Below are positions 1 through 20,950 of a stretch of 64,000 bases of DNA, in pieces. The position numbers were made by a program, and so were the translations under genes. A model generated the notes under the pieces. The model was not told where the DNA came from and ran no database searches. It was given only the letters and a program-made list of their open reading frames with translations. The stretch is from assembly GCA_963811245.1 (NCBI GenBank), contig CAWEQL010000008.1, forward strand, positions 8,134 through 72,133, written 5' to 3'. This stretch comes from an uncultured Acidimicrobiaceae bacterium (GTDB taxonomy: Bacteria; Actinomycetota; Acidimicrobiia; Acidimicrobiales; Salinilacustritrichaceae). The number at the start of each line of letters is the position of its first letter. Position 1 is the first letter of the stretch.

Positions 1-422
1 AGCTCTACACCGAGCTCGGTCGCATGGACGACGAAGGGCTGGTCGAGGTCACCGACGTCGGGGCCCGCAACCGCAAGGAGTACGACCTCACCATCGAGGG
101 GAGAACTGAACTCGAGCGGTGGCTCACCGAGGTCGAGCCCGAGCGAGTCCGTCGCGACGATGCGATGCTGCGTGTCTTCTTCCTGTGGGCGATCGATCCG
201 GAACAGGCACGTGGCTATCTCGAACGCGAGGCCGATCAACAGCGCCGCTTCCACGAGCTGCTCGAGGTGGTCGAGCAGACCATCGACTGGGACGAGAGCG
301 GGTTCGATCGCTTCGGCCGTCTCGCCCTCGAGAACGGACTCCGCGTCGCCGAGGCCAACGAGGCGTGGGCACGCTGGGCCGCTGAGCAGGTCGGAACACG
401 ACCGGCCTCTCGTCCCAACTGA
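1..422 (+). CDS. PadR-family transcriptional regulator (5' truncated by window edge)
   Basis: LYTELGRM..GLVEV..RNRKEYDLTIEGRTELERWL winged helix plus a helical C-terminal domain. Confidence 0.85.
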   Translation, partial: LYTELGRMDDEGLVEVTDVGARNRKEYDLTIEGRTELERWLTEVEPERVRRDDAMLRVFFLWAIDPEQARGYLEREADQQRRFHELLEVVEQTIDWDESGFDRFGRLALENGLRVAEANEAWARWAAEQVGTRPASRPN

Positions 423-555
423 ACTCGGGCCGATACCGCTGACCGCGGTGGACCCGGGGTCTTGTCAGTCGGGTCGACTTCGGTGTTAGCGACTGCTGCG
501 CCATCCGTTCCCCGCCCGCCCCGTGGGGAGGCCGCGCAGCGAGTCCCTCGCCGTA

Positions 556-586
556 CAGACCACAAACAGACCACATTCAGACCACA
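556..586 (+). repeat. Three CAGACCACA direct repeats, 11-bp period (integrase arm-type sites, left arm)
   Basis: Exact 9-mers at 556, 567 and 578. Confidence 0.8.
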
Positions 587-638
587 CCTGAGAGGTATGT
601 GGGGGTACCAGCTGTCACGGGCGCTCGCGAAACGGGGC

Positions 639-661
639 CTGACCTGCAAAACGCAGGTCAG
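639..661. repeat. Inverted repeat CTGACCTGC-aaaac-GCAGGTCAG
   Basis: Perfect 9-bp arms; the TGACCTG core recurs in the hairpin at 747-777. Confidence 0.7.
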
Positions 662-689
662 CCGCATGTGGATAACCCGTGACCGCATG

Positions 690-733
690 GTTCGGGACGC
701 AGAGGTCGGGAGTTCAAATCTCCCCCACCCGAC
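690..733 (+). mobile_element. 3' half of tRNA-Pro(CGG): att core of an integrative element, not an intact tRNA
   Basis: Anticodon loop TT-CGG-GA, T-arm GGGAG-TTCAAAT-CTCCC and acceptor 3' strand CCACCCG-A are present. There is no D-arm or 5' acceptor strand, and upstream CATGG does not pair with CGCAG. Confidence 0.85.
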
Positions 734-746
734 TCAGAAGAATGAC

Positions 747-787
747 CAGGTCACGGGCGGCTTTCGTCCGTGACCTGTTGGTTTTCC
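747..787 (+). terminator. Hairpin CAGGTCACGG...CCGTGACCTG followed by a T-rich tract
   Basis: Perfect 10-bp stem directly after the tRNA fragment, then TTGGTTTT. Confidence 0.6.
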
Positions 788-806
788 ACAGGCCGGAAAT
801 CGGCCG

Positions 807-826
807 CAGACCACACTCAGACCACA
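807..826 (+). repeat. Two CAGACCACA direct repeats, 11-bp period (right arm)
   Basis: Exact 9-mers at 807 and 818. Confidence 0.8.
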
Positions 827-1066
827 GCAACACGGGCAGATGACGCAGTATGCAATAGATCGTAGAGCGATCTGACTGAAGTGACTGAACGGTCCGGGGC
901 GTACACGGCAGCCGTCACCCAGAACTCGAGCGAGTCGCCGAGCCCATCGTCGAGATCAGGGCCGAGCTCGAACCCCACCCTCGCGAAGCAAGAGCCGGTT
1001 CTGTTCCCCGCTGTCCCTCGTCGCTGAGCGAGCCGCGGGTGGCGCAGCCCGCGGTCGGTCGAGGTC

Positions 1067-1284
1067 TCAGCGGAAGTGGTCCTTGTGGCGGTGGGAGGCA
1101 AACGGGGCAAGGGCAAGGACGGCGGAGGAGATCCAAACGCCTGCTCCGATCTGGGCGTTGACGTTCATCCCGATGACCGGGCCGGCAATGAACGCGAGAG
1201 CGGCGAGCGCCCACACGGCGATTCGCAGCCGCTGGCTCCCGCGCTCGGGCCTGGGTGATCGGTCACGCTCGAGGTTTCGCTCAC
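1067..1284 (-). CDS. Small 2-TM membrane protein, probably the last gene of the suf operon (frameshifted near its start)
   Basis: Manual translation RLRIAVWALAALAFIAGPVIGMNVNAQIGAGVWISSAVLALAPFASHRHKDHFR*; a GTG start overlaps the sufT stop (GTGA) in another frame. Confidence 0.45.
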
Positions 1285-1849
1285 AGCAACCCGAGCTCGA
1301 GCTTGGTGGCGTCGGAGATCAGCGCCATGCTCCACGGAGGGTCGTAGACGAGGGTGACGTCGACTTCGTCGACGCCGGCTATCGCGGCGACCGCTCGGGC
1401 GGCGTCGTCGCGGAGGATGTCGCCCATGCCGCAGCCGGGTGCGGTCATGGTCATGTCGATCTCGATCCGACGCCGCCCGTCGTCGAGGTCGATCTCCTCG
1501 CAGCGGTAGACGAGCCCGAGGTCGACGATGCTGATGGGGATCTCGGGGTCGTAGACGCCTTGGAGCGCGTCGCTGGACCGATGCGATGTCGAACTCGGCG
1601 TTGTCGGCGGGGCGGCGGGCGACGGCAACGGCTGCTTCGGATGTGTCGAGTTCGATGCCGATGGCGTCGGCGTCGCTGCCGTCGATGCGGAGCAGTGTTC
1701 CCAGTCTCGGTCCGCACGGTGATGCTGGCACCGAGCTGTTGGACGATCTCGACCTCTCCGCCTGCGGTGAGGGCGACCCGCTCGCCGTGGGGGACGGTGA
1801 CCGCGTCGCAGTCTCGTCGGAGCGAGATGGGACTCCAGGCCCGGGTCAT
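1281..1849 (-). CDS. sufT: Fe-S cluster assembly protein SufT (DUF59/PaaD-like), two frameshifts
   Basis: VYDPEIPISIVDLGLVY, MTMTAPGCGMG, YDPPW motifs; N-terminal RDCDAVTVPHG..QQLGASITV domain spread over three frames. Confidence 0.9.
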
Positions 1850-3096
1850 CAGCTCGGTCCCGTCGTGATGGCGCGCTCTACCTGCATGCGAAGGGAGAGG
1901 GGCGTGATCTGGTCGGTGATCTCGCGCGCGAACGCTTCGACGAGCATGGATCGAGCCTGCGCCCGGGGGATGCCGCGGGATCGAAGGTAGAAGAGGGCGT
2001 CATCATCGAGGCGGCCGGTGGCCGAGCCGTGGTCGCAGCGGACGTCATCGGCGAAGATCTCGAGCCATGGTCGGCTGTTGATCTGCGCGGTGGGGGCCAG
2101 GAGGAGGTTGCGGTTGGTCTGGTGGGCGTCGGTGCCGACGGTGCCGGGGCGAACGATCACGTGCCCGAGGAAGGCCCCGCGGCCGTGGCCACCGACGAGA
2201 CCCTTGAAACGCTGCGTGCTGGTGCAGTGTGAGGCGGCGTGGTCGACGGTGACGACGGTGTCGTGTCGCTGCTCGTCGGTTGGCAGGTACAGGCCGTCGA
2301 GGTCGCAGCGGGCGCCTTCGTCGATGAAGGTGACGTCGATGTCGAGCCGGGAGGTGACCGCGCCACGGGTGACCGACGTGGACCGGGCGCGCGAGCTGCC
2401 GTGCTGCTCGAAGCGGAGCCGCCCGATGTGGGTGGCGTCGGAGGCCTCGTGCTGGAGCCGGTGGTGGGTCAGCGTCGGCGCGGTCGGCGAGGCGGATCGT
2501 GGTCGAGGCGTTGGTGATCGCGCGGCCGGGGAGACCGACGTAGGACTCGACCAGGTGGAAGGTGCTGTCGACACCGGCCTCCACGATCACCCGAGGGTGG
2601 GACACGGTGCGGTTCTCTTCTGGCACCGAGACGTGGACGATGTGGATCGGGCTGTCGATGCGTGCTCCGGGTTCGATCTGCACGACGACGACATCGGACG
2701 CAGCTGATCGGTTGAGCGCATCGAACCCGTCGACCGGGTCGCGGATCGGTGTCGTCAGGTAGTCGATGACGCCTTCGGTCAGGGATGTCGACGACCCGTA
2801 CCAGAGCCCAGGCGGCGGTTGGCCGGGGTCGGACAGGGCGGGAACGTGGGCGCCGTTGACGATGACGATCCGGGTCTGTCCGTGGCGGCCGGCGAGTTCG
2901 TCGATCGTCGGCCCGCTCACCGACGGGGTGGTGGCGGGATCGGCATCGGCCAGGTCTCGGGTGATCTCGGCGACCGGCGTGTGGAGCCATGCTTCCTCCT
3001 GGGCGCCGGGGAACCCGTGCTCGTCGAGCCACTGTCGAGCATGATCGGCGTCGCCAAGGGTTCGTGTCCGCTGACGCGAGGTTGCGGGTGCTGCGG

Positions 3097-3100
<4 letters not shown>
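1849..3100 (-). CDS. sufD: Fe-S cluster assembly protein SufD, frameshifted near 2480
   Basis: NSRPWLEIFADDVRCDHGSATGRLDDDALFYLRSRGI. Confidence 0.92.
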
Positions 3101-3841
<741 letters not shown>

Positions 3842-3842
<1 letters not shown>

Positions 3843-5285
3843 CAGCCGACCGCCCCTTCCAGGGTGAGGCGCATGAGGGCCTGGGCCTCGACCGCGTACT
3901 CCATCGGGAGTTCGTCGAACACCTCGCGGCAGAACCCGTTGACGATCATCGACGTGGCGTCCTCCTCGCCGAGGCCGCGTTGGCGGCAGTAGAAGAGCTG
4001 GTCGTCGTCGATCTTCGAGGTCGACGCCTCGTGCTCGACCTGGGCGGTGTCGTTCTTCACCTCGATGTAGGGGAACGTGTGGGCGCCGCACTCGGAACCG
4101 ATCAGCAGCGAGTCGCAGCGGGTGTGGTTGCGGGCCCCGGTCGCCGACCGCAGCACCTTCACCAGCCCGCGGTAGGTGTTCTGGGCGTGACCGGCGGAGA
4201 TGCCCTTGGACAGGATCGTGCTGGTCGTGTTCTTGCCGATGTGGATCATCTTCGTGCCGGTGTCGGCCTGCTGATGACCGGTGGTCACGGCAACCGAGTA
4301 GAACTCGCCGACCGAGTCGTCGCCCTGGAGGATGACGCTCGGGTACTTCCAGGTGATGGCCGAGCCGGTCTCGACCTGGGTCCAGGAGATCTTGGCCCGG
4401 TTCCCGCACCGGCCGCGTTTGGTGACGAAGTTGTAGATGCCGCCGACGCCGTTCTCGTCGCCGGGGTACCAGTTCTGCACCGTCGAGTACTTCACGCTGG
4501 CGTCGTCGAGCGCGACGATCTCGACCACCGCAGCGTGGAGCTGGTTCTCGTCGCGCATCGGGGCCGTGCATCCCTCGAGGTAGCTGACGCTGGCCCCTTC
4601 TTCGGCGACGATCAGGGTGCGCTCGAACTGGCCGGTCTCGGCCGCGTTGATCCGGAAGTAGGTCGACAACTCCATCGGGCAACGCACGCCCTCGGGGACG
4701 AAGCAGAACGACCCGTCGGAGAACACCGCCGAGTTGAGCGTGGCGAAGAAGTTGTCGCGGAACGCCACGACCGAACCCAGGTAGCGGCGGACCAGGTCGG
4801 GGTGCTCGCGCACCGCCTCGGAGAACGAGCAGAAGATCACCCCGGCCTCGGCCAGCGTCGCCTTGAACGTGGTGGCGACCGAGACCGAGTCGATGATCGC
4901 GTCGACCGCCACGTGGTCACCCCGGCCAGGCGCTCCTGCTCGGCGAGGGAGATGCCGAGCTTGTCGAACGCGGCCCGGATCTCCGGGTCGACCTCATCGA
5001 GGCTCTCGGGCCCGGGCCCTTCGGCTTCGGCGCCGCCCAGTAGTGCATGTCCTGGTAGTCGATCGGCGGGTGGTGCACGTTCTGCCACGTCGGCGGCTCG
5101 AGCGTCAGGAAGTGGCGGAACGCGGCGAGACGCCACTCGAGCAGCCAGTCGGGTTCGTCGTTCTTGGCCGAGATGAGCCGAACGACGTCCTCGGTCAGCC
5201 CCTTCGGGGCCAGGTCGGTGTCGATGTCGCTGTGGAACCCGAAGGCGTACTCTCGCTCGACGAGCTCGTCGATGACGTCGGTCAT
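3842..5285 (-). CDS. sufB: Fe-S cluster assembly protein SufB, two frameshifts
   Basis: [45 protein letters not shown]. Confidence 0.95.
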
Positions 5286-5308
5286 GGTCGTCCTCTCCTG
5301 GTTGCAGA

Positions 5309-5332
5309 TAAATCTAGCAGATGCTAGAACTA
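5309..5332. promoter_or_regulatory. Operator TCTAG-N6-CTAGA (site 1) in the divergent sufB/globin promoter
   Basis: TCTAGCAGATGCTAGA at 5313-5328; outer GGTTGC/GCAACC arms at 5300-5305 and 5335-5340. Confidence 0.8.
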
Positions 5333-5359
5333 AGGCAACCGGCGTTCTGGAGGAACACC

Positions 5360-5806
5360 ATGCGCGACACCCCACGACCGACACCGACTCGCGACCTCGA
5401 CTCACCGGAGGAGATCGCCGAGATGGTCCGCCGCTTCTACGCCGACGTGGCCATGGACGACCTGCTCGGGCCGATGTTCAACGACGTCGCCCGGGTGGAC
5501 TGGTCAGCGCACCTCCCCAAGCTCACCGCGTTCTGGTGCCGCGCCCTGCTCGGACAGCAGGGCTATGCCGGGAACCCGTTCCGGGCCCACGCCCACATCC
5601 ATGAGCAGCGACCGTTCACGTCCGCCCACTTCGAACGGTGGCTCATGCTGTTCCACGAGACCCTCGAGCTCGGATGGACAGGCCCCAACGCGACCCGCGC
5701 ACGGGCGCTCGCCGACAACGTCGCCCGCGTCCACCGCGAACAACTCCTCGGGGAGGAAGTCGCCGTCGCTGGCTCTCTCAACGTCAGCTCCCCCCGACGC
5801 CGCTAG
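5360..5806 (+). CDS. Group III truncated hemoglobin (trHbP)
   Basis: VRRFY (B9-B10), DWSAH (E7), NPFRAH (F8), HFERW (G8); GGAGG RBS. Confidence 0.92.
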   Translation: MRDTPRPTPTRDLDSPEEIAEMVRRFYADVAMDDLLGPMFNDVARVDWSAHLPKLTAFWCRALLGQQGYAGNPFRAHAHIHEQRPFTSAHFERWLMLFHETLELGWTGPNATRARALADNVARVHREQLLGEEVAVAGSLNVSSPRRR

Positions 5807-5816
5807 GAGACAAGCA

Positions 5817-6565
5817 GTGGAACTCCCTTCTCATCTCGTCGAGGCCCGCCGAACCCCGTTGTTCGACTACGAGTCCCTCCCAGACGCGCTCGCGAAGACG
5901 CATCGGACCACCGTGTGGGGCACGCTCCACGTCCAGCAGGGGAGCGTCCAGTACACCGAATCGGAGGGCGAGTCTCCCCGGTCAGAACGCCTCGACCCCG
6001 GCGACCATGTGGCGATCCCCCCATTCATCGCTCACGAAGTCGATCCGTCGACGGACGCCATCTTCTTCGTGCAGTTCTACCGTGAGCCCGACGCAGACCT
6101 GGTTCCACTGCCCGAGGCGGCTCCGCCGACAGCGATCTACCGGGACGCCCCGTGGGAACACCGCGGAGTCGATCTCGACACGACCGAGGAGATCTTCGAG
6201 CTCGTCACGAGGCAGTACGCCGACATCGTGCAGGACGACGTGTTGGCGACGTACTTCACCTTCGGAACAGATGCGATGGATTGGCGCGCCCACATCCTGA
6301 GAGTCGCCGACTACTGGAACCATGTGCTGTTGTTCGCCCCGAGCTACGAGATCGACATCATCGGACGTCACCAAGCGATCCATGAAGACGGCGAGCCGTT
6401 CTCGGCTGATGCGTTCGATCGCTGGTTGCAGATCTTCCTCGATGCGGTCGACGGCGGCTGGACAGGGCCCAACGCGGAAATCGCGAAGAACGCGCCACGG
6501 GTATGGCATGGGCGATGGCTCAGCGGGTGCTCGGCAAAGGGGTCTGGCGGCCGTCCGTGCCATGA
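5817..6565 (+). CDS. YeaR/TehB-N (DUF1971) cupin fused to a group III truncated hemoglobin; frameshift near 6490
   Basis: RTPLFDYESLPDALAKTHRTTVWGTLHVQQGSV..PPFIAHEV..FFVQFY, then DWRAH..YW..GRH..FDRW; the alternate frame supplies RATGMAWAMAQRVLG..* with stop at 6563-6565. Confidence 0.85.
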
Positions 6566-6620
6566 CCTGCGTTCCGTGGTTCATCTCTGCATTCCAAGGG
6601 CGCATCAGAGCTCCGATCTG

Positions 6621-7817
6621 ATGGGGTCGCGTGAAACTCGGGTGGCTGATGTCCAGGGCCAGACCGTGCCGATGCTCGTCATCGCGCTCGGCTTCACGGT
6701 GTCGGCACCGATCGCGGCGGTGGTTCCCCACGCCACAGGCGCTTGGCTGCCGCTCCATCTCTTCCTGGTCGGAGGGCTGTTCTCGGCGATCGCCGGTGCG
6801 ACCCAGATGCTTGCGGTGACCTGGTCGGCCGCTCCCGCACCCGACGATCGGCTCGCAACGATCCATCGATCGCTGATCATCGTGGGAGTGGTTGCCGTTG
6901 CCGCTGGCCGAGAGGTCCACAACCGTGCGTTGGTGGGATTGGGTGGCGTCGCGATCGTGATCCTGACCACGATGCTGGTCGCGAGCCTGTCCCGGATCCG
7001 GAGCGCGGCCGCCACCGATCGCTTTCATCCTGCAATCGACGGGTACCTGATCGGCTTCGTGTGGGCACTCGTCGGGGTCATCGTGGGCGTCACCCTGGCC
7101 GCAGACCAGGCCGGTACCTGGTGGGGGCGTCTTCGAGACGCCCATGTCGCGATCAACGTCTTGGGCTTCGTCGGCATCGTCATCGCCGCCACGCTCCCGT
7201 ACTTCGTTGCCACGCAGGCCCGCATGAAGATGTCGCACCGCGCCACTCCTGCGCGCCTCCGGGCGGTGCTGGTCTGGCTTGGCGTTGCCGTCGTCGTCAT
7301 TGTGGCCGGCCATCTCGAGGCAATGCCCGCGCTCAGCGGCGTCGGCTACTTCGCGTACGCGATCGGGCTCTGCCTCATCGTCGCTCATCTCCCACCCGTG
7401 CGGGCCCGGCAGGTCCGTTGGGCGGGTCCACGACTGGTGCAGCTGGGAACCGGTATCGCGTGGTGGGTGACTGGCACCCTGATGTTGGCCTTCCATGAGT
7501 TCGGAGCGTCCGTTGACCGGCCAACCGCGCTGCGCGTCATCGCCGTCGGCGGATTCGCGCAGATCCTGGTCGCATCGTTGGCCTACTTCGGCCCGGTACT
7601 CCGCGGCGGAGGCCATCGACAGCTCACCGCTGGCTTCGCCGTCACCAGATCCTGGCCATCACTGACGGCCGGCAATGCCGCCGCGCTCAGCCTCCTACTC
7701 GATGTTCAGCCGGCTGCGACGGTGGCCCTGGCGGTCTGGGCCGTGGACACGGTCGTCAGGGCCATCCGGCTGTTCCGGACCCGTGTCGAACCCTCGGCCG
7801 AGCCGCAATCCGCTTAG
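6621..7817 (+). CDS. Polytopic membrane protein, NnrS-like
   Basis: About 12 hydrophobic segments with intramembrane His motifs WLPLHLFLVG and RLRDAHVAINVLG. Confidence 0.6.
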   Translation: MGSRETRVADVQGQTVPMLVIALGFTVSAPIAAVVPHATGAWLPLHLFLVGGLFSAIAGATQMLAVTWSAAPAPDDRLATIHRSLIIVGVVAVAAGREVHNRALVGLGGVAIVILTTMLVASLSRIRSAAATDRFHPAIDGYLIGFVWALVGVIVGVTLAADQAGTWWGRLRDAHVAINVLGFVGIVIAATLPYFVATQARMKMSHRATPARLRAVLVWLGVAVVVIVAGHLEAMPALSGVGYFAYAIGLCLIVAHLPPVRARQVRWAGPRLVQLGTGIAWWVTGTLMLAFHEFGASVDRPTALRVIAVGGFAQILVASLAYFGPVLRGGGHRQLTAGFAVTRSWPSLTAGNAAALSLLLDVQPAATVALAVWAVDTVVRAIRLFRTRVEPSAEPQSA

Positions 7818-7899
7818 GGCCGATCCGCATTTCGTGCCGGTCGAGCGAGGCGATCGGCTCGGTGGGAGGAGGAAGGTGGTCATCCACCACCCGGGGCAT

Positions 7900-8589
7900 T
7901 CACGATGTTGCGGGGTCGACTCGCAGTTTCAGTCGACACTGTGCTCGACGAGGGTCCTTGGCGACGAGGCCGTCCACCTCGACCCGGCCGACGGTTTCGG
8001 CCATGCCCTCGGCCATCCCGAGGTGGAGTTGGCAGACGGTGTCGGGATCCTCCAGGGCGCCGGACTCGAACGGGCAGGTCCGCAACACGATGTCGGTGCC
8101 GTCGCGTCGGCGACGGATCTCGGGATCGAATCCTTCGCGCGCCATCGCATCGGCAATCGCCTCCACGGCGTCATCGGTTCCTTCGGACGCTCGGGTGCCC
8201 CTGATCGTTCCGGCCCGGCGACCGACCTCGACCGGCGCGTCGCCGGTCCGGATGATCTCGGTCAACAGCACGCTCAGCCGTTCGTAGGGGCCGGTGACCC
8301 CCCACCGGCTCTCCGCCGCCGGGTCGTCGCGATACACGAGTCGTGGCCTCCCCGGACCGGATGGCGCGGCCGTCGTCTCGATGACCAAGCCGCCGTCGAC
8401 CAACTTGGCGAGGTGCTGGCGGATCGCGTTGTGGTTCAGCCCGAGATGGGCGGTGAGTTCGGCGACATCGACCGGGCGGTCCGCCGTGACGATGAATTCG
8501 AAGATCGCGTGGCGGGTCGGATCGCCGAGAGCCCGGGCTTGTTCCTGCAACGTTGGCATTCGCTTGGACCCCTCGGTCGACATCGTCAC
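7900..8589 (-). CDS. HTH regulator of the SufR/ArnR-like (COG2345) type with a 3-Cys C-terminal sensor
   Basis: ALGDPTR..LNHNAIRQHLAKL..GPGRPRLVY; C-terminal CPF-X11-C..LHLG..C. Confidence 0.85.
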   Translation of the reverse strand: MTMSTEGSKRMPTLQEQARALGDPTRHAIFEFIVTADRPVDVAELTAHLGLNHNAIRQHLAKLVDGGLVIETTAAPSGPGRPRLVYRDDPAAESRWGVTGPYERLSVLLTEIIRTGDAPVEVGRRAGTIRGTRASEGTDDAVEAIADAMAREGFDPEIRRRRDGTDIVLRTCPFESGALEDPDTVCQLHLGMAEGMAETVGRVEVDGLVAKDPRRAQCRLKLRVDPATS

Positions 8590-8720
8590 GCCATTCTGGA
8601 TGGGACGTCGAGTAGGGCCTCGACACGGTTGATGAGGTCGGGCACCGTGACGGCCTCGAGCACGTCGAGTATGTCGGCTGACGTGAGGGTCTCGGCGTGC
8701 CGGTGTGTCTCAGCAGGCAT
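8586..8720 (-). CDS. 44-aa small protein translationally coupled to the regulator
   Basis: MPAETHRHAETLTSADILDVLEAVTVPDLINRVEALLDVPSRMA*; GAGAGAG upstream; its stop overlaps the regulator GTG (GTGA). Confidence 0.55.
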   Translation of the reverse strand: MPAETHRHAETLTSADILDVLEAVTVPDLINRVEALLDVPSRMA

Positions 8721-8752
8721 GGTTCACTCGCTCTCTCGTCTGGCTTGCGTGA

Positions 8753-8776
8753 TTTATCTAGTCTAGGCTAGATAAA
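8753..8776. promoter_or_regulatory. Operator TTTATCTAG-N6-CTAGATAAA (site 2)
   Basis: Perfect 9-bp arms in the divergent promoter between the regulator operon and the hemerythrin-like gene. Confidence 0.85.
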
Positions 8777-8799
8777 GAGTGGATGCGAGGAGGGTGGCG

Positions 8800-9159
8800 A
8801 TGAGCGGCAACGTGTCACACGTCGACCTCATGCGATTCGCCAGAGCGCTGCAGACCGTGACGCTCGGACGCGACCTCGATGCCGTCCACAGTGAGCTGTG
8901 CTCACTGCGCAACGCGCTCGTTCAGCACATCCGAGACGAGGAACGGCACCTCCGCGAGGTCTCGCCCGCGGTCGCCGACGCGGTGCGTCGCGGGCAGAAG
9001 GATCTCCTTCGCGATATCGACGCAGTACTCGACCACTCCGACGGGGCCGACGACGAGTGTCGGTGTGTCTCGAAGGCGACGCACCTGACGAGATCGATTG
9101 CTCGGCAGGCGCGGCTCGAGAGCCATATGACCACCTCCGCCGATCGCCGCCGCCGATAG
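8800..9159 (+). CDS. Degenerate hemerythrin-like four-helix protein
   Basis: SH..HIRDEE first-half ligands; second-half His positions appear as GQ and QARLE. Confidence 0.5.
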   Translation: MSGNVSHVDLMRFARALQTVTLGRDLDAVHSELCSLRNALVQHIRDEERHLREVSPAVADAVRRGQKDLLRDIDAVLDHSDGADDECRCVSKATHLTRSIARQARLESHMTTSADRRRR

Positions 9160-9191
9160 CAGTGCGTGGCGATCCCGCGGACGAATCGCTC

Positions 9192-9521
9192 TCAGGCAGC
9201 TGCCTCCTGCGGGGCGCCGGTGTTGACCGGGGCGATGGCGTCGGGTGTGCCCGGCATGCCCACGGACGCCTCGGCTGCGGCGATGGCCGCCTCGGCGCGA
9301 ACGGCGGCGAGGATCGCTCCCATCATGCCTCCGAAACCAGGACCGCCCCAGACGGCGGCGAAGAGGCCGACGCCGACAGCCGGGACCAACTGCGCCCCCG
9401 CGTACAGCATCACCACGGTGACGCCGACGGTCATCGCGACGGTAGCGATGATCGTGCCCGTGACCGCTCCTCGAATCGCCGCTCGCTCCACTGCGCCGTC
9501 ACTTCGATCGATGTCCTGCAT
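9192..9521 (-). CDS. Small Gly-rich 2-TM membrane protein
   Basis: Two hydrophobic helices and WGGPGFGGMMG; GAGGAG RBS. Confidence 0.7.
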   Translation of the reverse strand: MQDIDRSDGAVERAAIRGAVTGTIIATVAMTVGVTVVMLYAGAQLVPAVGVGLFAAVWGGPGFGGMMGAILAAVRAEAAIAAAEASVGMPGTPDAIAPVNTGAPQEAAA

Positions 9522-9550
9522 GGCTGTTCGCTCCTCGTCCACGAAATCGG

Positions 9551-9574
9551 TTTCTCTAGTGAACACTAGATGAA
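9551..9574. promoter_or_regulatory. Operator TCTAG-N6-CTAGA (site 3)
   Basis: TTTCTCTAGtgaacaCTAGATGAA about 30 bp upstream of the 9521 start. Confidence 0.8.
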
Positions 9575-9695
9575 CGGACGCCTGTCGACCAGGCTCGTCC
9601 AGCATTTCCACATTGGGGGCACGTGGACGCGGTCGCCACCACCGGCACAGTGAGGACGCGCGGCAGCTGCCGTTTTGGATGCGTGACAGGCTCAC

Positions 9696-10493
9696 GTGGT
9701 GGAACCCGACGAGGAGGTGCTCCAGGGCGGCGTCGCCAACGCAGGAGCGGTCGTGCGAGTCGGAGCGGATGTGCTCAGGCCATCCAACGAGCATTCGCCT
9801 TCCATCTTCGAGTTCTTGTCCGAGCTCAGGTCGAACGGCTTCCGGCGAGCCCCTGAGCCGGTAGCGCTCGAGGCCGACGGTCGTGAACGCCTCCGGTTCA
9901 TTCCCGGCGACGTCGCGCTCCCTCCGTATCCCGACTGGATCCAGACGGACGATTCCCTGACGTCGATGGCGGAGCTCATCCGGGCGCTGCATGACGCATC
10001 CGTCGGCGTCGCCACTGCCGGCATGACGTGGAGCTCAGAGATGGCCGACCCTCGAGGCGGTCCCGTGATCTGTCACAACGACGTGTGCGTGGAGAACGTC
10101 GTGTTCCACGACGGTCGGGCTGTCGCGCTCCTCGACTTCGATTTCGCCGCACCGGGCCGTCGCACGTTCGACCTCGCCGCCTTCGCCCGGATGTGCGTTC
10201 CCGTCGACGACGATGTGAATTCGGCCAAGCTCGGATGGCACCCGTCTGATCGCCCAGGCCGGGTGCGTCTCGCATGCGATGCCTACGGACTCGACCTGGA
10301 GGGCAGAGCGGAGGTCCTCCACTCCCTCGACAGGTCCATCGCTCGAGGTGGCGAGTTCGTCCGGCGACGCGCTGAAGCAGGGGAGCCCGGGTTCGTGCAG
10401 ATGTGGACGGAGTTCGGCGGGATGGAACGCTTCGATCGACGCCGACGATGGTGGGTGAACACCCGGGCGCGGTTCGAGGCGGCACTTCTGTAG
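9696..10493 (+). CDS. Aminoglycoside phosphotransferase-like (APH/choline kinase fold) protein
   Basis: LQGGVAN, ICHNDVCVENVV, LLDFDFAAPG. Confidence 0.85.
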   Translation: MVEPDEEVLQGGVANAGAVVRVGADVLRPSNEHSPSIFEFLSELRSNGFRRAPEPVALEADGRERLRFIPGDVALPPYPDWIQTDDSLTSMAELIRALHDASVGVATAGMTWSSEMADPRGGPVICHNDVCVENVVFHDGRAVALLDFDFAAPGRRTFDLAAFARMCVPVDDDVNSAKLGWHPSDRPGRVRLACDAYGLDLEGRAEVLHSLDRSIARGGEFVRRRAEAGEPGFVQMWTEFGGMERFDRRRRWWVNTRARFEAALL

Positions 10494-10580
10494 GCATCGG
10501 CCGGGGTGTGCTTCGGGGTCTCGACAGGCGAGCAGGTGGACGTCCAGCTACGAGCGGGGGCACTTGCGGGTTCGGTATCG

Positions 10581-10947
10581 ATGCTTGACACTGGCGGTGT
10601 GGAGATCGAGAGGGGGTACGTCCCCGAGCAGGCTGTGACGACAGCCGACGAGCTCCACGCCATTCTCGGCGAGCAGTTCGACAGCCAGGTCAACAAGGTG
10701 ATCGATCACGTCGACGACCACTGCCGGGCGTGGATCGAGCGCAGCCCGTTTGGCCGTGCCTGATCGCCCCGGAAACCACCGAGGTGACACGTTCCGCAAC
10801 GTGTGGGAGCCGGATCTCTGGGGCCCCGTCGACGGGCTACCCAGCTACGCATGCGCCCTGGTCGATCATGCCGCGCTGGACACCCCGCTTGACGAGGTGG
10901 AGTGGATGATGAACTTCAACGAGGAGCACCGGCTCTACGACGATTGA
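10581..10947 (+). pseudogene. FMN-binding PPOX-type (MSMEG_1061-like) gene with internal deletions
   Basis: KVIDHVDDHCRAWIERSPF joined to VPDRPGNHRGDTFRNV and then WEPDLW..RLY; intervening segments missing. Confidence 0.65.
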
Positions 10948-10964
10948 GCCCAGTCGTGCCAACC

Positions 10965-11146
10965 GACCCGAGGCAGGTGCACGTCCTCGTTTTTTCGAGT
11001 CCGAGGCGAAGGCGCACGAGCGCGAGGACGATCCGCGCCGCCAGGATGCACTCGTCCCCGTCCGGGAGAAGATGGCCGAGATCTTCGAGGGTCCGCCCGC
11101 CTTCACCGACCTCACCGCCGTCGTCGAGCGGACGTACGGGCGATGA
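10965..11146 (+). pseudogene. C-terminal remnant of an ABM-like small alpha/beta-barrel protein
   Basis: DPRQVHVLV/FESEAKAHEREDDPRR..EIFEGPPAFTDL*; no start or N-terminal half. Confidence 0.5.
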
Positions 11147-11232
11147 CCACGATCCGTGACGAGGTGACGAGGGAGATCGCGGCGACACCGGAGACGGTGT
11201 GGTCGTTGGTGGCCGACGTGACCCGGATGACG
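11143..11232 (+). pseudogene. N-terminal remnant of an SRPBCC protein
   Basis: MTTIRDEVTREIAATPETVWSLVADVTRM, after which similarity is lost. Confidence 0.55.
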
Positions 11233-11330
11233 GTGTCCGATTCCGGCGTTTCCGTCGTTGGCTACGGTCGCGTCGTGGACGACCCCGAGGCCACTCGCAA
11301 CCGCCGGTGCGAACATCGGCGGGCCGAGAG

Positions 11331-11912
11331 ATGAACGCACGCTTCCTGTTCCGGGCGCTGCCACAGATGCTCCTGGCGCCGCTGCGGGTGCGACGGAACC
11401 CACTGTCCGCCCCCCGGGGTCCCGAGCACTACGAGCCCACATCGCTGGCCGCGGACCTGGATGCCACCACGGTGAGGGCCGCCGACGTGCCCGTCGGCCA
11501 CACCCGCACCATGCCGGCCGGTGAGTGGGCGCCGCCGGTGCTCGCCGGATGTGACGAGCCCTTGGCGCCCGGAGCCCCGGACCTTCGCGGGGTGTGGCAG
11601 GTGCACCGGGGTCCGATGAAGGGCCACGTCGAGCGCATCGAGCAAGCCGGGAACCGAGTGGTCATCACCGTTGGGGGTCTTGTCCACGACATGTTCGTCG
11701 ACGGCACGCTGGCGGGCGGTGTGAACGACGTCGCCGCTGGTGGGGGTGGCGCCATCGCGGTGGCGGCCCGCTTCGAGCACGGTCGACTCAACCTGTATCC
11801 CGCTGACCGGGGCATCGTCGCCGTCACCCGCTACCGGGACGGCGATGAGATGGTGTGGAGGTGGGGCATCTGGCGCAACCGCCTGCGCCGGGTACCGCTC
11901 CCTGAGGCATAG
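11331..11912 (+). CDS. Hypothetical protein
   Basis: Coding-like composition; PVLAGCDEPLAPGAPDLRGVW..HVERIEQAGNRVVIT..HDM. Confidence 0.7.
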   Translation: MNARFLFRALPQMLLAPLRVRRNPLSAPRGPEHYEPTSLAADLDATTVRAADVPVGHTRTMPAGEWAPPVLAGCDEPLAPGAPDLRGVWQVHRGPMKGHVERIEQAGNRVVITVGGLVHDMFVDGTLAGGVNDVAAGGGGAIAVAARFEHGRLNLYPADRGIVAVTRYRDGDEMVWRWGIWRNRLRRVPLPEA

Positions 11913-12053
11913 GGGACAGGCTCTCTGCGGACCGGAGCGCACCGGTCCCTCGTGATGTGGGCCGCGGCCACGGACCGTCCGGGGGGAGGAGAGGACGTGC
12001 TCATGGACGTCTGGTCGTCCTGAGCACGAGGTCCTCGCCTGAAACGCGCCAAC

Positions 12054-12080
12054 CGATGACTTCTGGCCCCTCGCTTCGTC
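12054..12080 (+). promoter_or_regulatory. Candidate SigG/ECF56-type promoter CGATGA-N18-GTC
   Basis: CGATGA at 12054-12059 and GTC at 12078-12080, upstream of the VOC-sigma operon. Confidence 0.55.
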
Positions 12081-12116
12081 CACCCGGTGATACCGAACGA
12101 CGACGAGGAGTCCACC

Positions 12117-12530
12117 ATGTCCCTGCACCCGTACCTGTTCTTCACCGGCACCTGCCGGGAGGCCATGACCCGCTATCAGGAGATCTTCGGCGGCGAGCTC
12201 TTCGTGATGTCGTTCGACGAGCTCCCGGACGGCAACGACCCGCCGGCGCCCGTGGACCCCGAGGCCGTGATGCACGCCGCACTCCAGTTCGGCGACGACC
12301 TCCTCATGGCGTCGGACGATCCGACCGGCGACGGGGGTGGGACCAAGGGCGTGGCGGTGAGCGTCCAGCTCGCCGACCCGGATGAGGCGACCCGGATCTT
12401 CTCCGCACTCGCCGGTGGCGGCGAGGTCCAGATGCCGCTGAGCGAGACGTTCTTCTCGCCCCTGTTCGGCACCTGCACGGACCGGTGGGGCGTGGCCTGG
12501 ATGGTCAACGTGGTCCAGGACCAGGGCTGA
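12117..12530 (+). CDS. VOC family protein (PhnB-like)
   Basis: LHPYLFFTGTCREA, VMHAAL, MPLSETFFSPLFGTCTDRWGVAW. Confidence 0.9.
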   Translation: MSLHPYLFFTGTCREAMTRYQEIFGGELFVMSFDELPDGNDPPAPVDPEAVMHAALQFGDDLLMASDDPTGDGGGTKGVAVSVQLADPDEATRIFSALAGGGEVQMPLSETFFSPLFGTCTDRWGVAWMVNVVQDQG

Positions 12531-12718
12531 TGCCAGCCCCCGACCTCGGCGCGGTCGACGAGCTGTGCCGGCTCGCCCTCGTCGCGGAACGGCTGGGCTG
12601 TCGGATCCGGATCCTCGACGCCACCCCGGATGTCCGCGACCTGCTGGTGCTGGCCGGCGTCGACGAACTGCTCCTCGATCCACCCCGTCGGCATCCGGAT
12701 CTACCATGTCCGCGGTGA
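12530..12718 (+). CDS. Short STAS-like protein (possibly truncated)
   Basis: PDLGAVDELCRLALVAERLGCRIRILDATPDVRDLLVLAGVDELL. Confidence 0.5.
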   Translation: MPAPDLGAVDELCRLALVAERLGCRIRILDATPDVRDLLVLAGVDELLLDPPRRHPDLPCPR

Positions 12719-13683
12719 CCACCTCGGCGCCCGCCGTCACCGCCGCCGACTTCGAGCAGCACCGTCGCGAGCTCACCGGCTTCTGCTACCGGATGCTCGG
12801 CGCCGGATCGGAGGCCGAGGACGCCGTCCAGGAGACCTTCGTGAAGGCCTGGCAGGCCGCCGACCGCTTCGAGGGCCGCAGCTCGGTGCGGACGTGGCTG
12901 TTCCGCATCGCGTCGAACGTGTGCATCGACATGGGACGGAGCCCGCAGCGGCGGGCCCGGCCGGTCGATCTCGGACCGGTCCGTTCGCCCGAGCCACGAC
13001 ACCTCGCCGATGTGCTCCCGGAGGACCGTTGGATCACGCCGGTGGCCGACGACCGCGTCCTCGACCTCGACGGCGACCCAGCCGTGGTGGCGGCCGGTCG
13101 AGAGAGCATCCGCCTGGCCTTCGTTGCCGCTCTGCAACGCCTGCCACCTCGCCAGCGGGCCGCGCTCGTGCTGGCCGAGGTGCTGGCCTGGCCGGTCCGT
13201 GACATCGCCGAGCTCCTCGACGCCTCGGTGCCCGCGATCAACAGCGCGCTGCAACGGGCACGGGCCACGTTGGCGCAGGATCCAGTGGCACCAATTGGTC
13301 CGCTGACCCCGGCGCAGGAGGAGCTGCTGCGCCGGTACGTCGATGCGTTCGAGCGGTACGACATGGACGCCCTCGCCGCCCTGCTCCACGAAGACGCCAT
13401 CCAGACCATGCCCCCGTACGCCATGTGGCTCCAGGGCCGAGACGACCTCATCACCTGGTACGCCGGCCCCGGCATCGAGTGCAAGGGCTCGCGGCTGCTG
13501 CGCGGGTGGGCCAACGGCTGCCCCGCCTTCGCCCAGTACCGGGTCGACCCGGGCGGCGGCCACGCCCCCTGGGCGCTCCAGGTGCTCGAGCTCCGCGACG
13601 ACCGCATCGCTCAGGTCCACGCCTTCCTCGACACCGGGGACTGCTTCCCGCGTTTCGGCTTCCCCGACCACCTGCCGGCCTGA
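12706..13683 (+). CDS. ECF sigma factor, SigG-like, with C-terminal SnoaL domain
   Basis: CYRMLG..AEDAVQET..WLFRIASNVCID; LPPRQRA; MPPYAMW, ANGCPA. Confidence 0.9.
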   Translation: MSAVTTSAPAVTAADFEQHRRELTGFCYRMLGAGSEAEDAVQETFVKAWQAADRFEGRSSVRTWLFRIASNVCIDMGRSPQRRARPVDLGPVRSPEPRHLADVLPEDRWITPVADDRVLDLDGDPAVVAAGRESIRLAFVAALQRLPPRQRAALVLAEVLAWPVRDIAELLDASVPAINSALQRARATLAQDPVAPIGPLTPAQEELLRRYVDAFERYDMDALAALLHEDAIQTMPPYAMWLQGRDDLITWYAGPGIECKGSRLLRGWANGCPAFAQYRVDPGGGHAPWALQVLELRDDRIAQVHAFLDTGDCFPRFGFPDHLPA

Positions 13684-13714
13684 GTCGGCCTCGGCACCAC
13701 CGGGATCCAGACGC

Positions 13715-14341
13715 ATGCGACCGCTCCGCTATTCGATCAACGTCACGCTCGACGGGTGCTGCGACCACCGGGTGGGCATCCCCGACGAGGAGCTGCACCG
13801 CCACCACGCCGAGAACCTCGAGCGGGCCGATGCGCTCCTCTTCGGACGCGTGACCTACCAGATGATGGAGGAAGCCTGGCGCCGGACCGATGCGGGAACG
13901 TGGCCCGACTGGATGGCGGACTGGATGATCCCGTTCGCGCAGACGATCGACGAAGCGGAGAAGTACGTCGTGTCGAGCACGCTCGAGCAGGTCGACTGGA
14001 ACGCGTCCCTGGTGACGGGCGACCTGCGGCGCGCGGTCGAGCGGCTCAAACAGGAACCCGGCTCCGGCATCGCCGTGGGAGGCGTCACGCTTCCGCTCGC
14101 CCTGGCGAACATGGGACTGATCGACGAGTATGAGTTCGTCGTGCTGCCGGTCGTCGCCGGCCACGGACCGAGCGTGCTCGCCGGTCTCAGCGAGCGGCTC
14201 GACCTCACGCTGATCGGGCGCAAGGAGCTCCGGTCGGGCGCGATCGCTCTGCGCTACCGGCCGGGTATGGCCCGTCCCGTCGGAGTCGACGGGACGAGCA
14301 CACCCTCGGACGGTCGCCCTCAGCTGCCCGGCGGGCGGTAG
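13715..14341 (+). CDS. Dihydrofolate reductase/RibD C-terminal family protein
   Basis: SINVTLDG, LLFGRVTYQMM, GLIDEYEFVVLPVVAGHG. Confidence 0.9.
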   Translation: MRPLRYSINVTLDGCCDHRVGIPDEELHRHHAENLERADALLFGRVTYQMMEEAWRRTDAGTWPDWMADWMIPFAQTIDEAEKYVVSSTLEQVDWNASLVTGDLRRAVERLKQEPGSGIAVGGVTLPLALANMGLIDEYEFVVLPVVAGHGPSVLAGLSERLDLTLIGRKELRSGAIALRYRPGMARPVGVDGTSTPSDGRPQLPGGR

Positions 14342-14640
14342 GCCACCGAGCGCTCGATGGCCGAGTCGGCCTCCTCCAGCGTGAGGAGCTTGATGGTCCT
14401 GATCGTCGTGCTGCCGCTCGCCCCGACGGTGAACGCGGCAGCGGCAGCGGCATCGTCGTCGGGGAGGTCGACCACCACGTAGGCGTCGACGTCACCGAAG
14501 GCGAAGTGGAACGAGTCGAGGCTTCCGCCGAGCCCGGTCGCCATGTCGTTGACGGCCTTGGCACGGCTGGACGCACCGGCATCCTTCAGGCCGCGTACGC
14601 CCTCCGGGGTGTACTTCGCTTCGAACAGGTACTTGGGCAT
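14320..14640 (-). CDS. GYD domain protein
   Basis: MPKYLFEAKYT..GGSLDSFHFAFGDVD..YRPPG. Confidence 0.85.
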   Translation of the reverse strand: MPKYLFEAKYTPEGVRGLKDAGASSRAKAVNDMATGLGGSLDSFHFAFGDVDAYVVVDLPDDDAAAAAAFTVGASGSTTIRTIKLLTLEEADSAIERSVAYRPPGS

Positions 14641-14652
14641 TTGTTGGTCCCT

Positions 14653-15312
14653 TCATGGGGTGGATTGATGGATGAGATCTCGGTCGACGCGACGGAGCAG
14701 GCGGTGTGCGGCGCTGCCGGCCAGGAACAATGGGCCGGCGTCGTCGATCCGCTCGAGGTAGGTGGCGTCGGCGTTGCGGGCGGCGGTCGATGCGTCGACG
14801 TCCTCCCAGGAATCGGCCAAGCTGATCCAGGTGAGGCTCCCCCCGGGGCCGTAGAGGCTGCGGACGAGGGCGCCATCGAGGCCGGTGATCTTGGAATGGC
14901 GACTCAGGATGTCGACGGCCCACGCCATCGCCTCCGCGATCCGGCCGGGGGCGCAGCGAGCGGTGGAGACCGAGGCCAGACAGCCGGTGCTTCCGCCGGA
15001 TCCGGCCAGGTGGACGATCTCGCCGATGGCGTCCTCGACCGGGCCGGTGAAGACGACGCCGACGCTGGCGGAGATCCGTCGCTGGTACCCGGCATCGGCG
15101 GCCAACGTCGCCAGCGCGGCGGCCATCGCCGTCTGGGACTCCACCCGTGCGGAGTAGGAGACCGTGCCGACCGCGCCGCCGTACGCGGTGACCCACGGGA
15201 CGATGTCGAGCCCCGTGGCGTCCGAGGCATGGCGGCTCATGTCGAGCGCGAAGGCGTGCGCCTCGCCGGCATGGGCGGGGTCGATCGTCCGGCTTCTCGT
15301 GAACAGGTGCAT
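14653..15312 (-). CDS. Hypothetical protein with two tandem alpha/beta-barrel (ABM-like) repeats
   Basis: Internal duplication: EAHAFA..YGGAVGT..DAGY versus EAMAWA..YGPGGS..DATY. Confidence 0.7.
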   Translation of the reverse strand: MHLFTRSRTIDPAHAGEAHAFALDMSRHASDATGLDIVPWVTAYGGAVGTVSYSARVESQTAMAAALATLAADAGYQRRISASVGVVFTGPVEDAIGEIVHLAGSGGSTGCLASVSTARCAPGRIAEAMAWAVDILSRHSKITGLDGALVRSLYGPGGSLTWISLADSWEDVDASTAARNADATYLERIDDAGPLFLAGSAAHRLLRRVDRDLIHQSTP

Positions 15313-15368
15313 CGTGGAGGCCTCCCCCGGCCGCGTGCGGCCGACGTGGAGCATCCTCCGACCGATCG

Positions 15369-15385
15369 GTTACAGCGGCGCGTCA
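15369..15385 (-). promoter_or_regulatory. Motif TGACGCGCCGCTGTAAC upstream of the 15312 gene
   Basis: 16/17 identical to 18926-18942. Confidence 0.55.
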
Positions 15386-18300: not shown

Positions 18301-18876
18301 GCCGTCGCTGGCGAGAGCGGCCATGAGCAGCCCGCGCGGCCGGTCCCGGAGGGGGTTGGCGGCGATGTGGGCCTCGAGCGACGCCACCGCCTCGCCGGCC
18401 CGTGATCGGGCGATCAAGAGCTGCGCCCGGTCCTCGATGGCCAGCGCTCGCAGCTCGTCGAGGCGGGCGACCTCCGGAGCCGCCCACGGTTCGTGTCGGA
18501 ACTCGTCGAGTGCCTCGCCGTCCCACAAGGCGAGTGCCTCGTCCAGTGCCGCCAGGCGGTCGGGGTCGTCGGGACGCTCGACCAGGAGATCGGTGAACAT
18601 GACGGCGTCGACGGCGCAGGTGATGCGGTAGCCGGCCGAGTCGGTTCGGATCACGTCCTCGCCGATGCCGGCGCGCAGGCGTGACACCGTCGTGCGGAGC
18701 GCACCGGTCGTCAGGTCGAGGCTGTCGCTCAGGTGCTCGCTGCGTTGCGTCGTCCCCGAGGCCAGCGCGAGAGCGGCGAGGAGCCGGCGCTGCGGCGCGC
18801 TCGGGAGATCGACCAATTCGCCTCGGTCGGTGACGAACCGCACCGCGCCGAGGATGCGGACGTGCGCGGCCGCCAC
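15370..18876 (-). CDS. SARP/BTAD plus AAA ATPase large transcriptional regulator
   Basis: LALWDGEALDEF, PLRDRPRGLLMAAL, GEAGIGKT, LILDDVHWA, TAGNPLY. Confidence 0.9.
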   Translation of the reverse strand: MAAAHVRILGAVRFVTDRGELVDLPSAPQRRLLAALALASGTTQRSEHLSDSLDLTTGALRTTVSRLRAGIGEDVIRTDSAGYRITCAVDAVMFTDLLVERPDDPDRLAALDEALALWDGEALDEFRHEPWAAPEVARLDELRALAIEDRAQLLIARSRAGEAVASLEAHIAANPLRDRPRGLLMAALASDGRHADALRAYQAYRGLLAEEIGLEPSEFVRSIERRIAAGWDDDEGDTGGTAPPAERPTTVPVVRLPLHGELAEAPALIGRDREMSWLASDLVATRSGSMRSAVLGGEAGIGKTTLLAAFAGAHHGRGGNVVAYGRCSEGAEVPLEPFRSIVATIVEHAPLGLLRAHGERCGGELQRIAPHLVERLWTPPPRPADDATVRHQLFEAIVDLLRRAAAGGSLTLILDDVHWAEPTALLLLRHLGRSLVDAPVLIVAGYRDTDADASDELRSALADLDRGRCRRISLTGFDDDELGRLVGSLTGGPSVGTDVVAQLHDETAGNPLYAAQLVRHLWETDGLVVDDGQLRLADQHLTSAIPRSLLEVVWSRVQALGDRTAGILRIASVLGVDFDDDVLTSVCEEPAADVSSALDAAIGAGLLIDTGDPRRPLRFTHALVAHALYSELAPRQRRRLHGRAVQVFRRIDEAPRPDTVVELARHSALAGDLTAAQRWAVAAADHAFGHVAPSEAAAWCERALAYADERQVPAAERAALVLRLGEARRQAGDPRASRTLLDAARLAEDAGADDVLIRATLANDRGFTPSGGADDEQLAALEAALAAADPSDHATYARLLACLAQELGSTARQDERFAAAHRAIDLSETSDDPTLLPGMISALVFALWGHDTLDLQRRLTARAVELAASSADPALMFSAHRARYFVAIVAADAESAQASRRTMQALAAEIGEPRMVWNLAVFQAFEDVMEARFVDGEREAERALGIGTEIGEPVAFMLYAGQLFMNRSFAGRYDDVVPLLEQAIAADPASVPFRLAHAISCAVIGREAEATAVLAAGAAAGFADIPRDHQWMTAVVGYAVLAIELADRDAAAELYPILEPFGGQVAFNGATSQGHIGAYLGKLASLLGHHDVADVHLRRALDVNLTFGWRYHEATTLVAMAVSQQRRNGALDAQSRAWLDRAEDIATECGSATITAQVRQARRGDAPL

Positions 18877-18925
18877 AGATGTCCCTCCTGGTCCTTCTTC
18901 GGTCCGAGCGTACGGCAGCTCACGC

Positions 18926-18942
18926 TGACGCGCGGCTGTAAC
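18926..18942 (+). promoter_or_regulatory. Motif TGACGCGCGGCTGTAAC upstream of the 19000 gene
   Basis: 16/17 identical to the reverse complement of 15369-15385. Confidence 0.55.
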
Positions 18943-20931: not shown

Positions 20932-20950
20932 AGATGTAGCGTAGCGCGAC

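Follow-up and report, generated by a model that had tools for sequence, protein, structure and literature searches.

Segment 543-835 of the window, the whole 64-kb stretch of contig C8 analysed here, most probably represents a composite P-core-P' att junction that belongs to an accretion array at tRNA-Pro(CGG). The source MAG (G000; 22 contigs, 3.93 Mb, 71% G+C) is 76% complete. Within this junction, the attR of an upstream island, i.e., a P arm followed by a tRNA half, would be joined to an attL-type P' arm belonging to the downstream DNA, and such a composite site would arise by successive integration of elements of one family into the 3' half of tRNA-Pro(CGG). Junctions of this kind are already known, and the present one is well preserved.

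Anatomy of the junction

The earlier note on this DNA, made from the letters alone, recognized a tRNA-Pro(CGG) 3' half that starts at the anticodon loop, and this is borne out: the core at positions 691-733 matches C4:289070-289112 in 43 of 43 positions, inside the intact tRNA-Pro(CGG) called by ARAGORN at C4:289038-289112, the gene that the note had proposed to look for. The junction and its surroundings comprise the following features, in window coordinates:

1..422, + strand: 3' part of the gene for a PadR-family regulator (Pfam PadR and Vir_act_alpha_C), the final gene in the island upstream
543..690, + strand: P arm (conserved left arm), delimited by similarity to sibling junctions
556-564, 567-575 and 578-586, + strand: three exact CAGACCACA repeats in 11-bp phase, putative arm-type integrase sites
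639..661, + strand: perfect 9-bp palindrome CTGACCTGC-AAAAC-GCAGGTCAG (639-647/653-661), conserved in type-A P arms
667..676, + strand: DnaA-box-like TGTGGATAAC (reverse complement GTTATCCACA), delimited by alignment
691..733, + strand: core, 3' half of tRNA-Pro(CGG) beginning at the anticodon loop and including the 3' end, with 43/43 identity to the intact gene
734..835, + strand: P' arm (right arm), delimited by similarity to Actinospongicola halichondriae
747..787, + strand: terminator-like hairpin of 14 pairs with a T-run, just 3' of the tRNA half
807-815 and 818-826, + strand: two exact CAGACCACA repeats in 11-bp phase, putative P' arm-type sites
836..40500, no strand: accessory DNA 3' of the seam, devoid of additional core repeats
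1281..5405, - strand: second-copy suf module SufT/D/C/B, with paralogues on contig C13

The description of three repeats upstream and two downstream, all in one orientation and with an 11-bp period, likewise holds: exact CAGACCACA is found in the window at five positions only (556, 567, 578, 807 and 818), and the distances to the core, -135 to -105 upstream and +74 to +93 downstream, agree with those originally given. Genome-wide, on both strands, there are 13 exact copies as against the approximately 19 expected by composition, and 11 of the 13 are located at tRNA-Pro cores or at one core-less arm remnant. Similarity to the sibling junctions begins about 10 bp ahead of the first repeat, and the P arm of the window shows 75-86% identity to the P arms at C4:328692-328844, in an uncultured Acidimicrobiaceae MAG (G009, contig C12) and in A. 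halichondriae Hal317 (G022), a cultured isolate with a closed chromosome. The P' arm is 84% identical to the P' arm directly 3' of the intact A. halichondriae tRNA-Pro.

The TGACCTG inverted repeats that had been noticed on each side of the core are present, at 639-647/653-661 on the left and, as TGACCTG/CAGGTCA, at 747-753/771-777 on the right, where the repeat is accounted for as the stem of the terminator-like hairpin. In an alignment of the sibling sites, a third GCAGGTCA-like copy lies 3' of the core. The palindrome at 639-661 may be a site for an accessory protein or for Int. In many genomes, P arms of types A and B contain the TGTGGATAAC element about 15-25 bp ahead of the core, in the variants TGTGGA(T/C/A/G)AAC; a second box-like element at 782-790, in the P' arm, is peculiar to the window copy. 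This second element may be a degenerate arm site in inverted orientation or a site for a host factor. Neither ARAGORN nor Rfam detects a tRNA or other RNA gene in the window beyond sub-threshold chance matches, which for the site itself is explained by the absence of the tRNA 5' half.

A tandem array at tRNA-Pro(CGG) on another contig

The intact tRNA-Pro(CGG) is encoded on C4, a different contig from C8, and the further cores and CAGACCACA arrays that one would look for behind it exist. Three sites follow the gene, all in the orientation of tRNA-Pro and each with CAGACCACA arrays on the expected side or sides:

C4:303503, orientation as tRNA-Pro: exact 43-bp core, with CAGACCACA and TAGACCACA downstream
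C4:311845, orientation as tRNA-Pro: core-less P arm with CAGACCACA array
C4:328705-328960, orientation as tRNA-Pro: full P-core-P' site with CAGACCACA arrays, exact core at 328845

The MAG thus contains four copies of the core, and contig C4 ends inside the array. Two units, C4:289113-303545 and C4:303546-328887, are att-bounded on both sides. The genes between the sites encode esterases, transporters, regulators, dehydrogenases and toxin-antitoxin pairs; in particular, ParD/ParE pairs, 78% identical to one another, are located directly ahead of both P arms (C4:311243-311757 and C4:328067-328608; loci L009 and L010).

The array also contains two broken integrases, both from subfamilies other than the integrase family associated with the arm motif (see below). 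One (C4:315166-316056) is devoid of the region of the first catalytic Arg and lies 3' of an IS110 transposase, the two together spanning C4:313889-316056. The other (C4:329135-329596) is an N-terminal fragment of a XerD-like integrase, cut after about 125 residues by a fragment of an IS256/Mutator-like transposase; this IS256-like/XerD-like stretch spans C4:329135-331752, and the contig ends 2.7 kb beyond it. These broken integrases of other types indicate that decay happens in the G000 array. The XerD-like fragment was considered as the cognate integrase of the junction at C4:328.9 kb and rejected because in other genomes nothing comparable is encoded next to the motif.

Flanks of the seam and synteny with relatives

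The earlier note regarded the flanks as cargo, and accessory genes are indeed found on either side of the site. The upstream 8 kb of contig C8 contain cargo only, namely nucleotidyltransferase, PadR, YjbR, AraC, isochorismatase and luciferase-like genes (by Pfam); the entire PadR-family gene (C8:8019-8555) is transcribed toward the junction. Downstream, the suf module is followed by globin, DUF1971-membrane, ArsR and APH genes. The suf module is carried by only 3 of 12 same-genus genomes, where its surroundings differ, and its genes have paralogues on C13; it is therefore to be considered accessory. Over the first 19 kb of C8 (to about 11-12 kb of the window) the G+C content is 0.66-0.68, compared to 0.71 for the genome. 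A Pfam scan of the ORFs of C8:1-28 kb detected cargo and regulators only, with no integrase, excisionase or transfer genes, and the entire contig lacks a PF00589 match; the window therefore contains none, in agreement with the earlier note.

Several suf genes look broken. SufB and SufD are each split, the former at 4912/4917 with its parts in different frames, and SufC is short. Related environmental contigs differ from the suf region of the window by single-base indels at 2471, 3052, 3059 and 3767, so the breaks are either consensus errors of the MAG or real pseudogenes. Matches in public sequencing runs amount to at most 12% of the sampled words, all of them short contigs of related organisms with 90-95% likeness. 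Among these there is no piece that spans the site, no excision joint and no coverage step, which bears neither way on excision.

Comparison with relatives places the seam at the tRNA-Pro locus. In four of these (G001, G008, G009 and G022), the upstream flank of tRNA-Pro and the homologues of about 40.5-52 kb of the window are located on one contig in one orientation, at distances from flank to backbone of 11 kb in G001, at least 62 kb in G008, about 58 kb in G009 and 164 kb in G022. In G001, the tRNA-Pro flank is colinear with the homologue of C8:54.2-83 kb. Comparison with G008 and G009 puts the return of conserved backbone at about 40.5 kb of the window, and comparison with G001 and G022 at about 46.0 kb. 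The first 40-46 kb or so of the window thus correspond to the variable region 3' of tRNA-Pro in all four relatives, i.e., to DNA of the hotspot, and the island content is patchy over the genus. The combination that the earlier note held would speak against its proposal, both flanks being syntenic core with no matching tRNA or integrase, is not what is observed, the flanks being accessory. The adjacency of C4 to C8 is based on synteny alone, in a genome that is 76% complete, and the left boundary of the upstream island falls in the gap between the two contigs. A second, degenerate core was sought on C8 with up to 10 mismatches allowed and none was found, so the DNA 3' of the seam is not a delimited element.

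The genome of G001 differs from its relatives at this locus. It has no CAGACCACA array; an integrase-like sequence (locus L115, 14268-14435, on contig C11 of G001) lies right 3' of tRNA-Pro, about 430-600 bp from the gene, and the locus has 11 kb of accessory DNA of its own. The tRNA-Pro gene is the target there of a different element family within the same genus.

The same seams in Actinospongicola relatives

In the closed chromosome of A. halichondriae, the motif pair is located 73 bp downstream of tRNA-Pro (160217-160292), which is followed by five or six extra exact cores (positions 197698, 202812, 211143, 217656 and 236145); three of the extra cores are full P-core-P' seams like that in the window, and ParDE or its remnants precede the P arms. 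Contig C12 of G009 carries a comparable core array, and further P-core-P' sites are found at loci L047, L096 and L106. Across the five same-genus genomes searched, the motif pair is confined to tRNA-Pro arrays. ParDE directly ahead of the P arm recurs in G009, G022 and loci L024, L037, L106 and L109. The proposal that the site is the seam between elements integrated in tandem at tRNA-Pro is accordingly supported by the array on C4, by synteny, by the closed genome from the same genus and by an integrase family that goes with this arm motif in other Acidimicrobiia.

The core copies are identical in 43 of 43 positions in 12 of 14 cases, whereas the P arms are only 72-86% alike and the P' arms 65-85%. 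This combination of identical cores with diverged arms indicates that the copies are independent arrivals. Local duplication of a single junction was considered and rejected on the grounds that identical cores are combined with arms that are 14-28% different. Furthermore, an island segment of the MAG (C4:304579-307891) that encodes a LuxR-AAA regulator and neighbours is 92% identical to G022:241577-244877, compared to 76-81% for the backbone; in both genomes it lies 3' of homologous P' arms, at different ranks of the array. Together with the contrast between cores and arms, this segment indicates that the units are independent arrivals that move, or formerly moved, between lineages as site-bounded blocks.

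The arm motif in Acidimicrobiia and the associated integrase family

We scanned a genome collection, with one genome per species, for CAGACCACANNCAGACCACA. The motif pair was detected at 104 loci, mostly from Acidimicrobiia, that contain 112 sites; for 65 of these sites, the distance to a tRNA gene or to a tRNA-Pro half is fixed. Specifically, 31 sites lie 105-140 bp 5' of a tRNA-Pro half, as a triplet or doublet of repeats, 18 lie 57-75 bp 3' of an intact tRNA-Pro(CGG), 8 are 3' of a tRNA-Pro half and another 8 are 3' of an intact tRNA-Gly, -Val or -Arg. An alignment of 29 loci that combine a P arm with the core shows a common layout: two or three phased repeats, a GGTAC..TGTCAC block, TGACCTG elements, TGTGGA(N)AAC and the core. 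The TGTGGA(N)AAC element is present in two of the three P-arm subtypes and is missing in type-C arms.

An integrase with the same arm motif, which the earlier note had proposed to seek, is absent from the MAG but is encoded in other Acidimicrobiia. At 13 or more loci, the P arm is preceded, at a distance of 0.5-1.7 kb and on the same strand, by the gene for a 379-aa tyrosine integrase. This protein contains the Pfam domains Phage_integrase and SAM_3 with the invariant R..HxxR..H..Y residues and, ahead of the SAM-like domain, a conserved N-terminal MASIRQKPSGRWEARYRD...RGxWIDP segment. At tRNA-Gly and tRNA-Arg genes, too, the motif is accompanied, on the P' side, by integrases that share this N-terminal segment. 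Thus, the motif tracks the N-terminal domain and the core tracks the tRNA target, which is the pattern expected of the arm-type sites of heterobivalent integrases.

In attP of the lambda type, a core shared with attB is flanked on both sides by phased arm repeats, and the cognate integrase has an extra N-terminal domain. The junction described here is similar in having a core identical to attB and distinct arm motifs on both sides; that the N-terminal domain of the integrase binds the CAGACCACA repeats is suggested by their co-occurrence. We hypothesize that crossover takes place in the anticodon loop, where the identity to the tRNA begins, and that the CAGACCACA repeats on both sides, one helical turn apart, are arm-type sites, which the N-terminal domain of a heterobivalent tyrosine integrase would bind in the lambda-type fashion.

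In the autonomous relatives, an Xis-like HTH_17 gene and a TrwC relaxase/helicase gene are located upstream of int (approximately 4-6 kb upstream of int was examined), in the order TrwC - HTH_17 - int - P arm - tRNA-Pro half at loci L018, L043 and L070. The presence of the TrwC relaxase and the Xis-like gene implies that these relatives are ICE/IME-type elements.

The pair of CAGACCACA repeats also occurs about 70 bp 3' of intact tRNA-Gly(CCC/GCC/TCC), tRNA-Val(TAC) and tRNA-Arg(TCT) (loci L013, L023, L026, L030, L065, L072, L078 and L094), and at several of these loci a related integrase is encoded on the P' side, reading toward the tRNA. It appears that a single arm motif serves several tRNA targets. 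At locus L050 (1218-2856), a 1.6-kb unit that contains only ParDE lies between two exact tRNA-Pro cores, right 3' of an integrase-bearing element, and is possibly the smallest cassette in this family.

Islands without integrase, Xis and relaxase

The islands were described in the earlier note as integrase-less cassettes, and no cognate integrase, Xis or relaxase is encoded in the MAG. The best match to the cognate integrase in this genome is 53% over an 88-aa fragment at another tRNA; apart from the two broken genes in the array, the MAG has just distant integrases at other tRNAs. No cognate integrase was found in the five genomes of the genus that were searched, the closed one among them, the best match there being 45% identical (in G022). 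This G022 integrase, at 2.39 Mb, was considered as a potential helper; neither a tRNA nor a CAGACCACA array lies within 10 kb of it, and therefore it cannot be named as such. No TrwC or Xis homologues or remnants thereof were found in the MAG or in the arrays of G022 and G009, so that descent of these islands from a full ICE is putative. All examined type-A junctions, the subtype to which the window belongs, have ParDE or cargo ahead of the P arm and never int, such that ParDE occupies the slot where the autonomous relatives have int.

Given that a cognate integrase, Xis and relaxase are all missing, the islands behave as non-autonomous, CIME-like units. Under the proposed mechanism, the Actinospongicola islands would consist of cargo, often with ParDE just ahead of the P arm, and would be excised or re-shuffled only when a matching integrase is supplied in trans, for example, by an ICE that arrives and inserts itself into that array. 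Mobilisation of the islands in trans, as the earlier note suggested, is plausible and in keeping with the lack of these genes, and they may still be mobile at present.

Alternative explanations

The same observations could also be explained if the islands never had an integrase, i.e., are natively integrase-less satellite cassettes, often with ParDE in the int slot, whose circular form would carry a complete P-core-P' site; a transient helper ICE of the TrwC type would supply the integrase for insertion, excision and interspecies exchange, in an integron-like manner. Such an origin is conceivable, although on the whole rather unlikely. In its favour, ParDE or cargo precedes the P arm at every examined type-A junction, and no remnant of int, Xis or TrwC is detectable in the four junction-bounded segments of G000, the six segments of the closed G022 genome and the G009 array, while every copy has an intact core and intact arm blocks despite the divergence of the arms; the ParDE-only unit at L050, with its two cores beside an integrase-bearing element, fits as well. 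However, none of the Actinospongicola genomes examined encodes a helper integrase with the arm motif, the G000 array contains debris of integrases of other types (C4:315166-316056 and C4:329135-329596), circular forms were not seen, and loss of int followed by turnover of the cargo would yield the same picture.

The remaining possibilities concern the nature of the site itself. A chimeric assembly, in which the P and P' sides of two islands were joined through the 43-bp repeated core, has to be considered for a MAG of 22 contigs in which the core is repeated four times and C4 ends in the array, but it is very improbable: the repeat is short relative to the reads, C8 is colinear with the relatives further on, and the P-core-P' arrangement is seen three times in the closed chromosome of the isolate and again in G009, L047, L096 and L106. 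This recurrent anatomy makes an assembly chimera unlikely for the window. Direct repeats next to a match to the DnaA-box consensus (667-676, reverse complement TTATCCACA), a box conserved in many P arms, are also reminiscent of a plasmid-type oriV of an integrated replicon, with the 11-bp repeats as iterons and TGTGGATAA and TTTTCCACA as DnaA boxes. We give such an origin extremely little credence because in dozens of genomes the repeats on either side keep a constant distance to the tRNA 3' half and have integrase genes as neighbours, whereas a gene for a replication initiator is not found nearby, type-C arms have no box, and the box at 782-790 is not conserved in the sibling P' arms. Finally, the earlier note entertained an excised circular element captured as a contig, in which case the site would be a true attP. 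The P-core-P' anatomy is the sole support for a circle, and we reject it, its probability being practically nil, because the 114,897-bp contig runs into syntenic chromosomal backbone: from about C8:49-54 kb onward it is colinear with the backbone of four relatives, near tRNA-Pro. In addition, no integrase is encoded on this contig.

Comparison with known elements and implications

The composite junction in an accretion array fits the published scheme in which elements decay to cis-mobilisable elements (CIMEs) that then undergo accretion with ICEs (PMC5704250). A close parallel is with the CIMEs of Streptococcus thermophilus and the associated elements of the ICESt1/ICESt3 type (PMC5704250): there, too, att sites are kept while integration and transfer genes are absent, the units are arranged in tandem at the 3' end of the target gene, with each inner att site composed of a right arm and the left arm of the next unit, and a related autonomous element of the same att specificity exists. 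The present case differs in the host (Acidimicrobiia), in the target (tRNA-Pro(CGG)), in the number of stacked units (up to six) and in that no cognate ICE is resident in the examined genomes of the genus; cis-mobilisation is putative here.

The ssrA islands of Dehalococcoides (PMC3146451) are a close parallel as well: they lie in tandem, in the 100 kb or so 3' of a single small RNA gene whose 3' end is repeated directly at the boundary of each island, and a repeat-free variable region lies beyond the furthest repeat, as in the window; many of them lack an integration module and have been proposed to be cis-mobilisable (PMC3146451). In contrast to that system, which employs a serine recombinase and a 20-bp tmRNA repeat without arm repeats, the junctions described here have a tyrosine-integrase architecture, in which a 43-bp core is flanked on either side by phased arm repeats.

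Among actinomycete elements, pSAM2 and the pair AICESav3728/AICESav3708 similarly depend on a tyrosine integrase that inserts them into the 3' part of a tRNA gene, tRNA-Pro in the case of pSAM2 (PMC2440964). In elements of this group, attP is located directly 3' of int and tandem integration leaves one att site between the elements, as in the tandem AICESav3728/AICESav3708 pair, which is separated by a 44-bp att site; a large island of S. coelicolor is flanked by a 43-bp repeat of tRNA-Pro (PMC2440964). The autonomous relatives identified here have a TrwC-type relaxase rather than the AICE genes, i.e., RepSA/RepAM, FtsK-like Tra, Nudix and Kor (PMC2440964), and neither RepSA/RepAM nor FtsK-like Tra was found in the approximately 4-6 kb examined upstream of int. 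The arm motif and the integrase form a separate lineage. The resemblance to integrons is limited to the logic of the array, given that tRNA halves with arm repeats form the junctions and that the array does not start next to an integrase gene; if the islands are nevertheless natively integrase-less, they would be a tRNA-linked, arm-site-dependent analogue of the integron.

To our knowledge, the mobile elements of Acidimicrobiia are almost undescribed. The present analysis defines an element family that is widespread in this group and is characterized by tRNA-Pro(CGG) as the target, CAGACCACA arms at 11-bp phase, a recognizable N-terminal domain of the integrase, TrwC and an Xis-like protein. 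In Actinospongicola, the target of this family is a hotspot of 50-160 kb filled with stacked integrase-less islands in which the recombination sites stay intact while the cargo turns over. Because Hal317 is in culture and its genome is closed, the trans-mobilisability of orphan att-bounded islands is directly testable. Furthermore, the motif in combination with the tRNA half is a simple delimiter of islands for the annotation of such MAGs.
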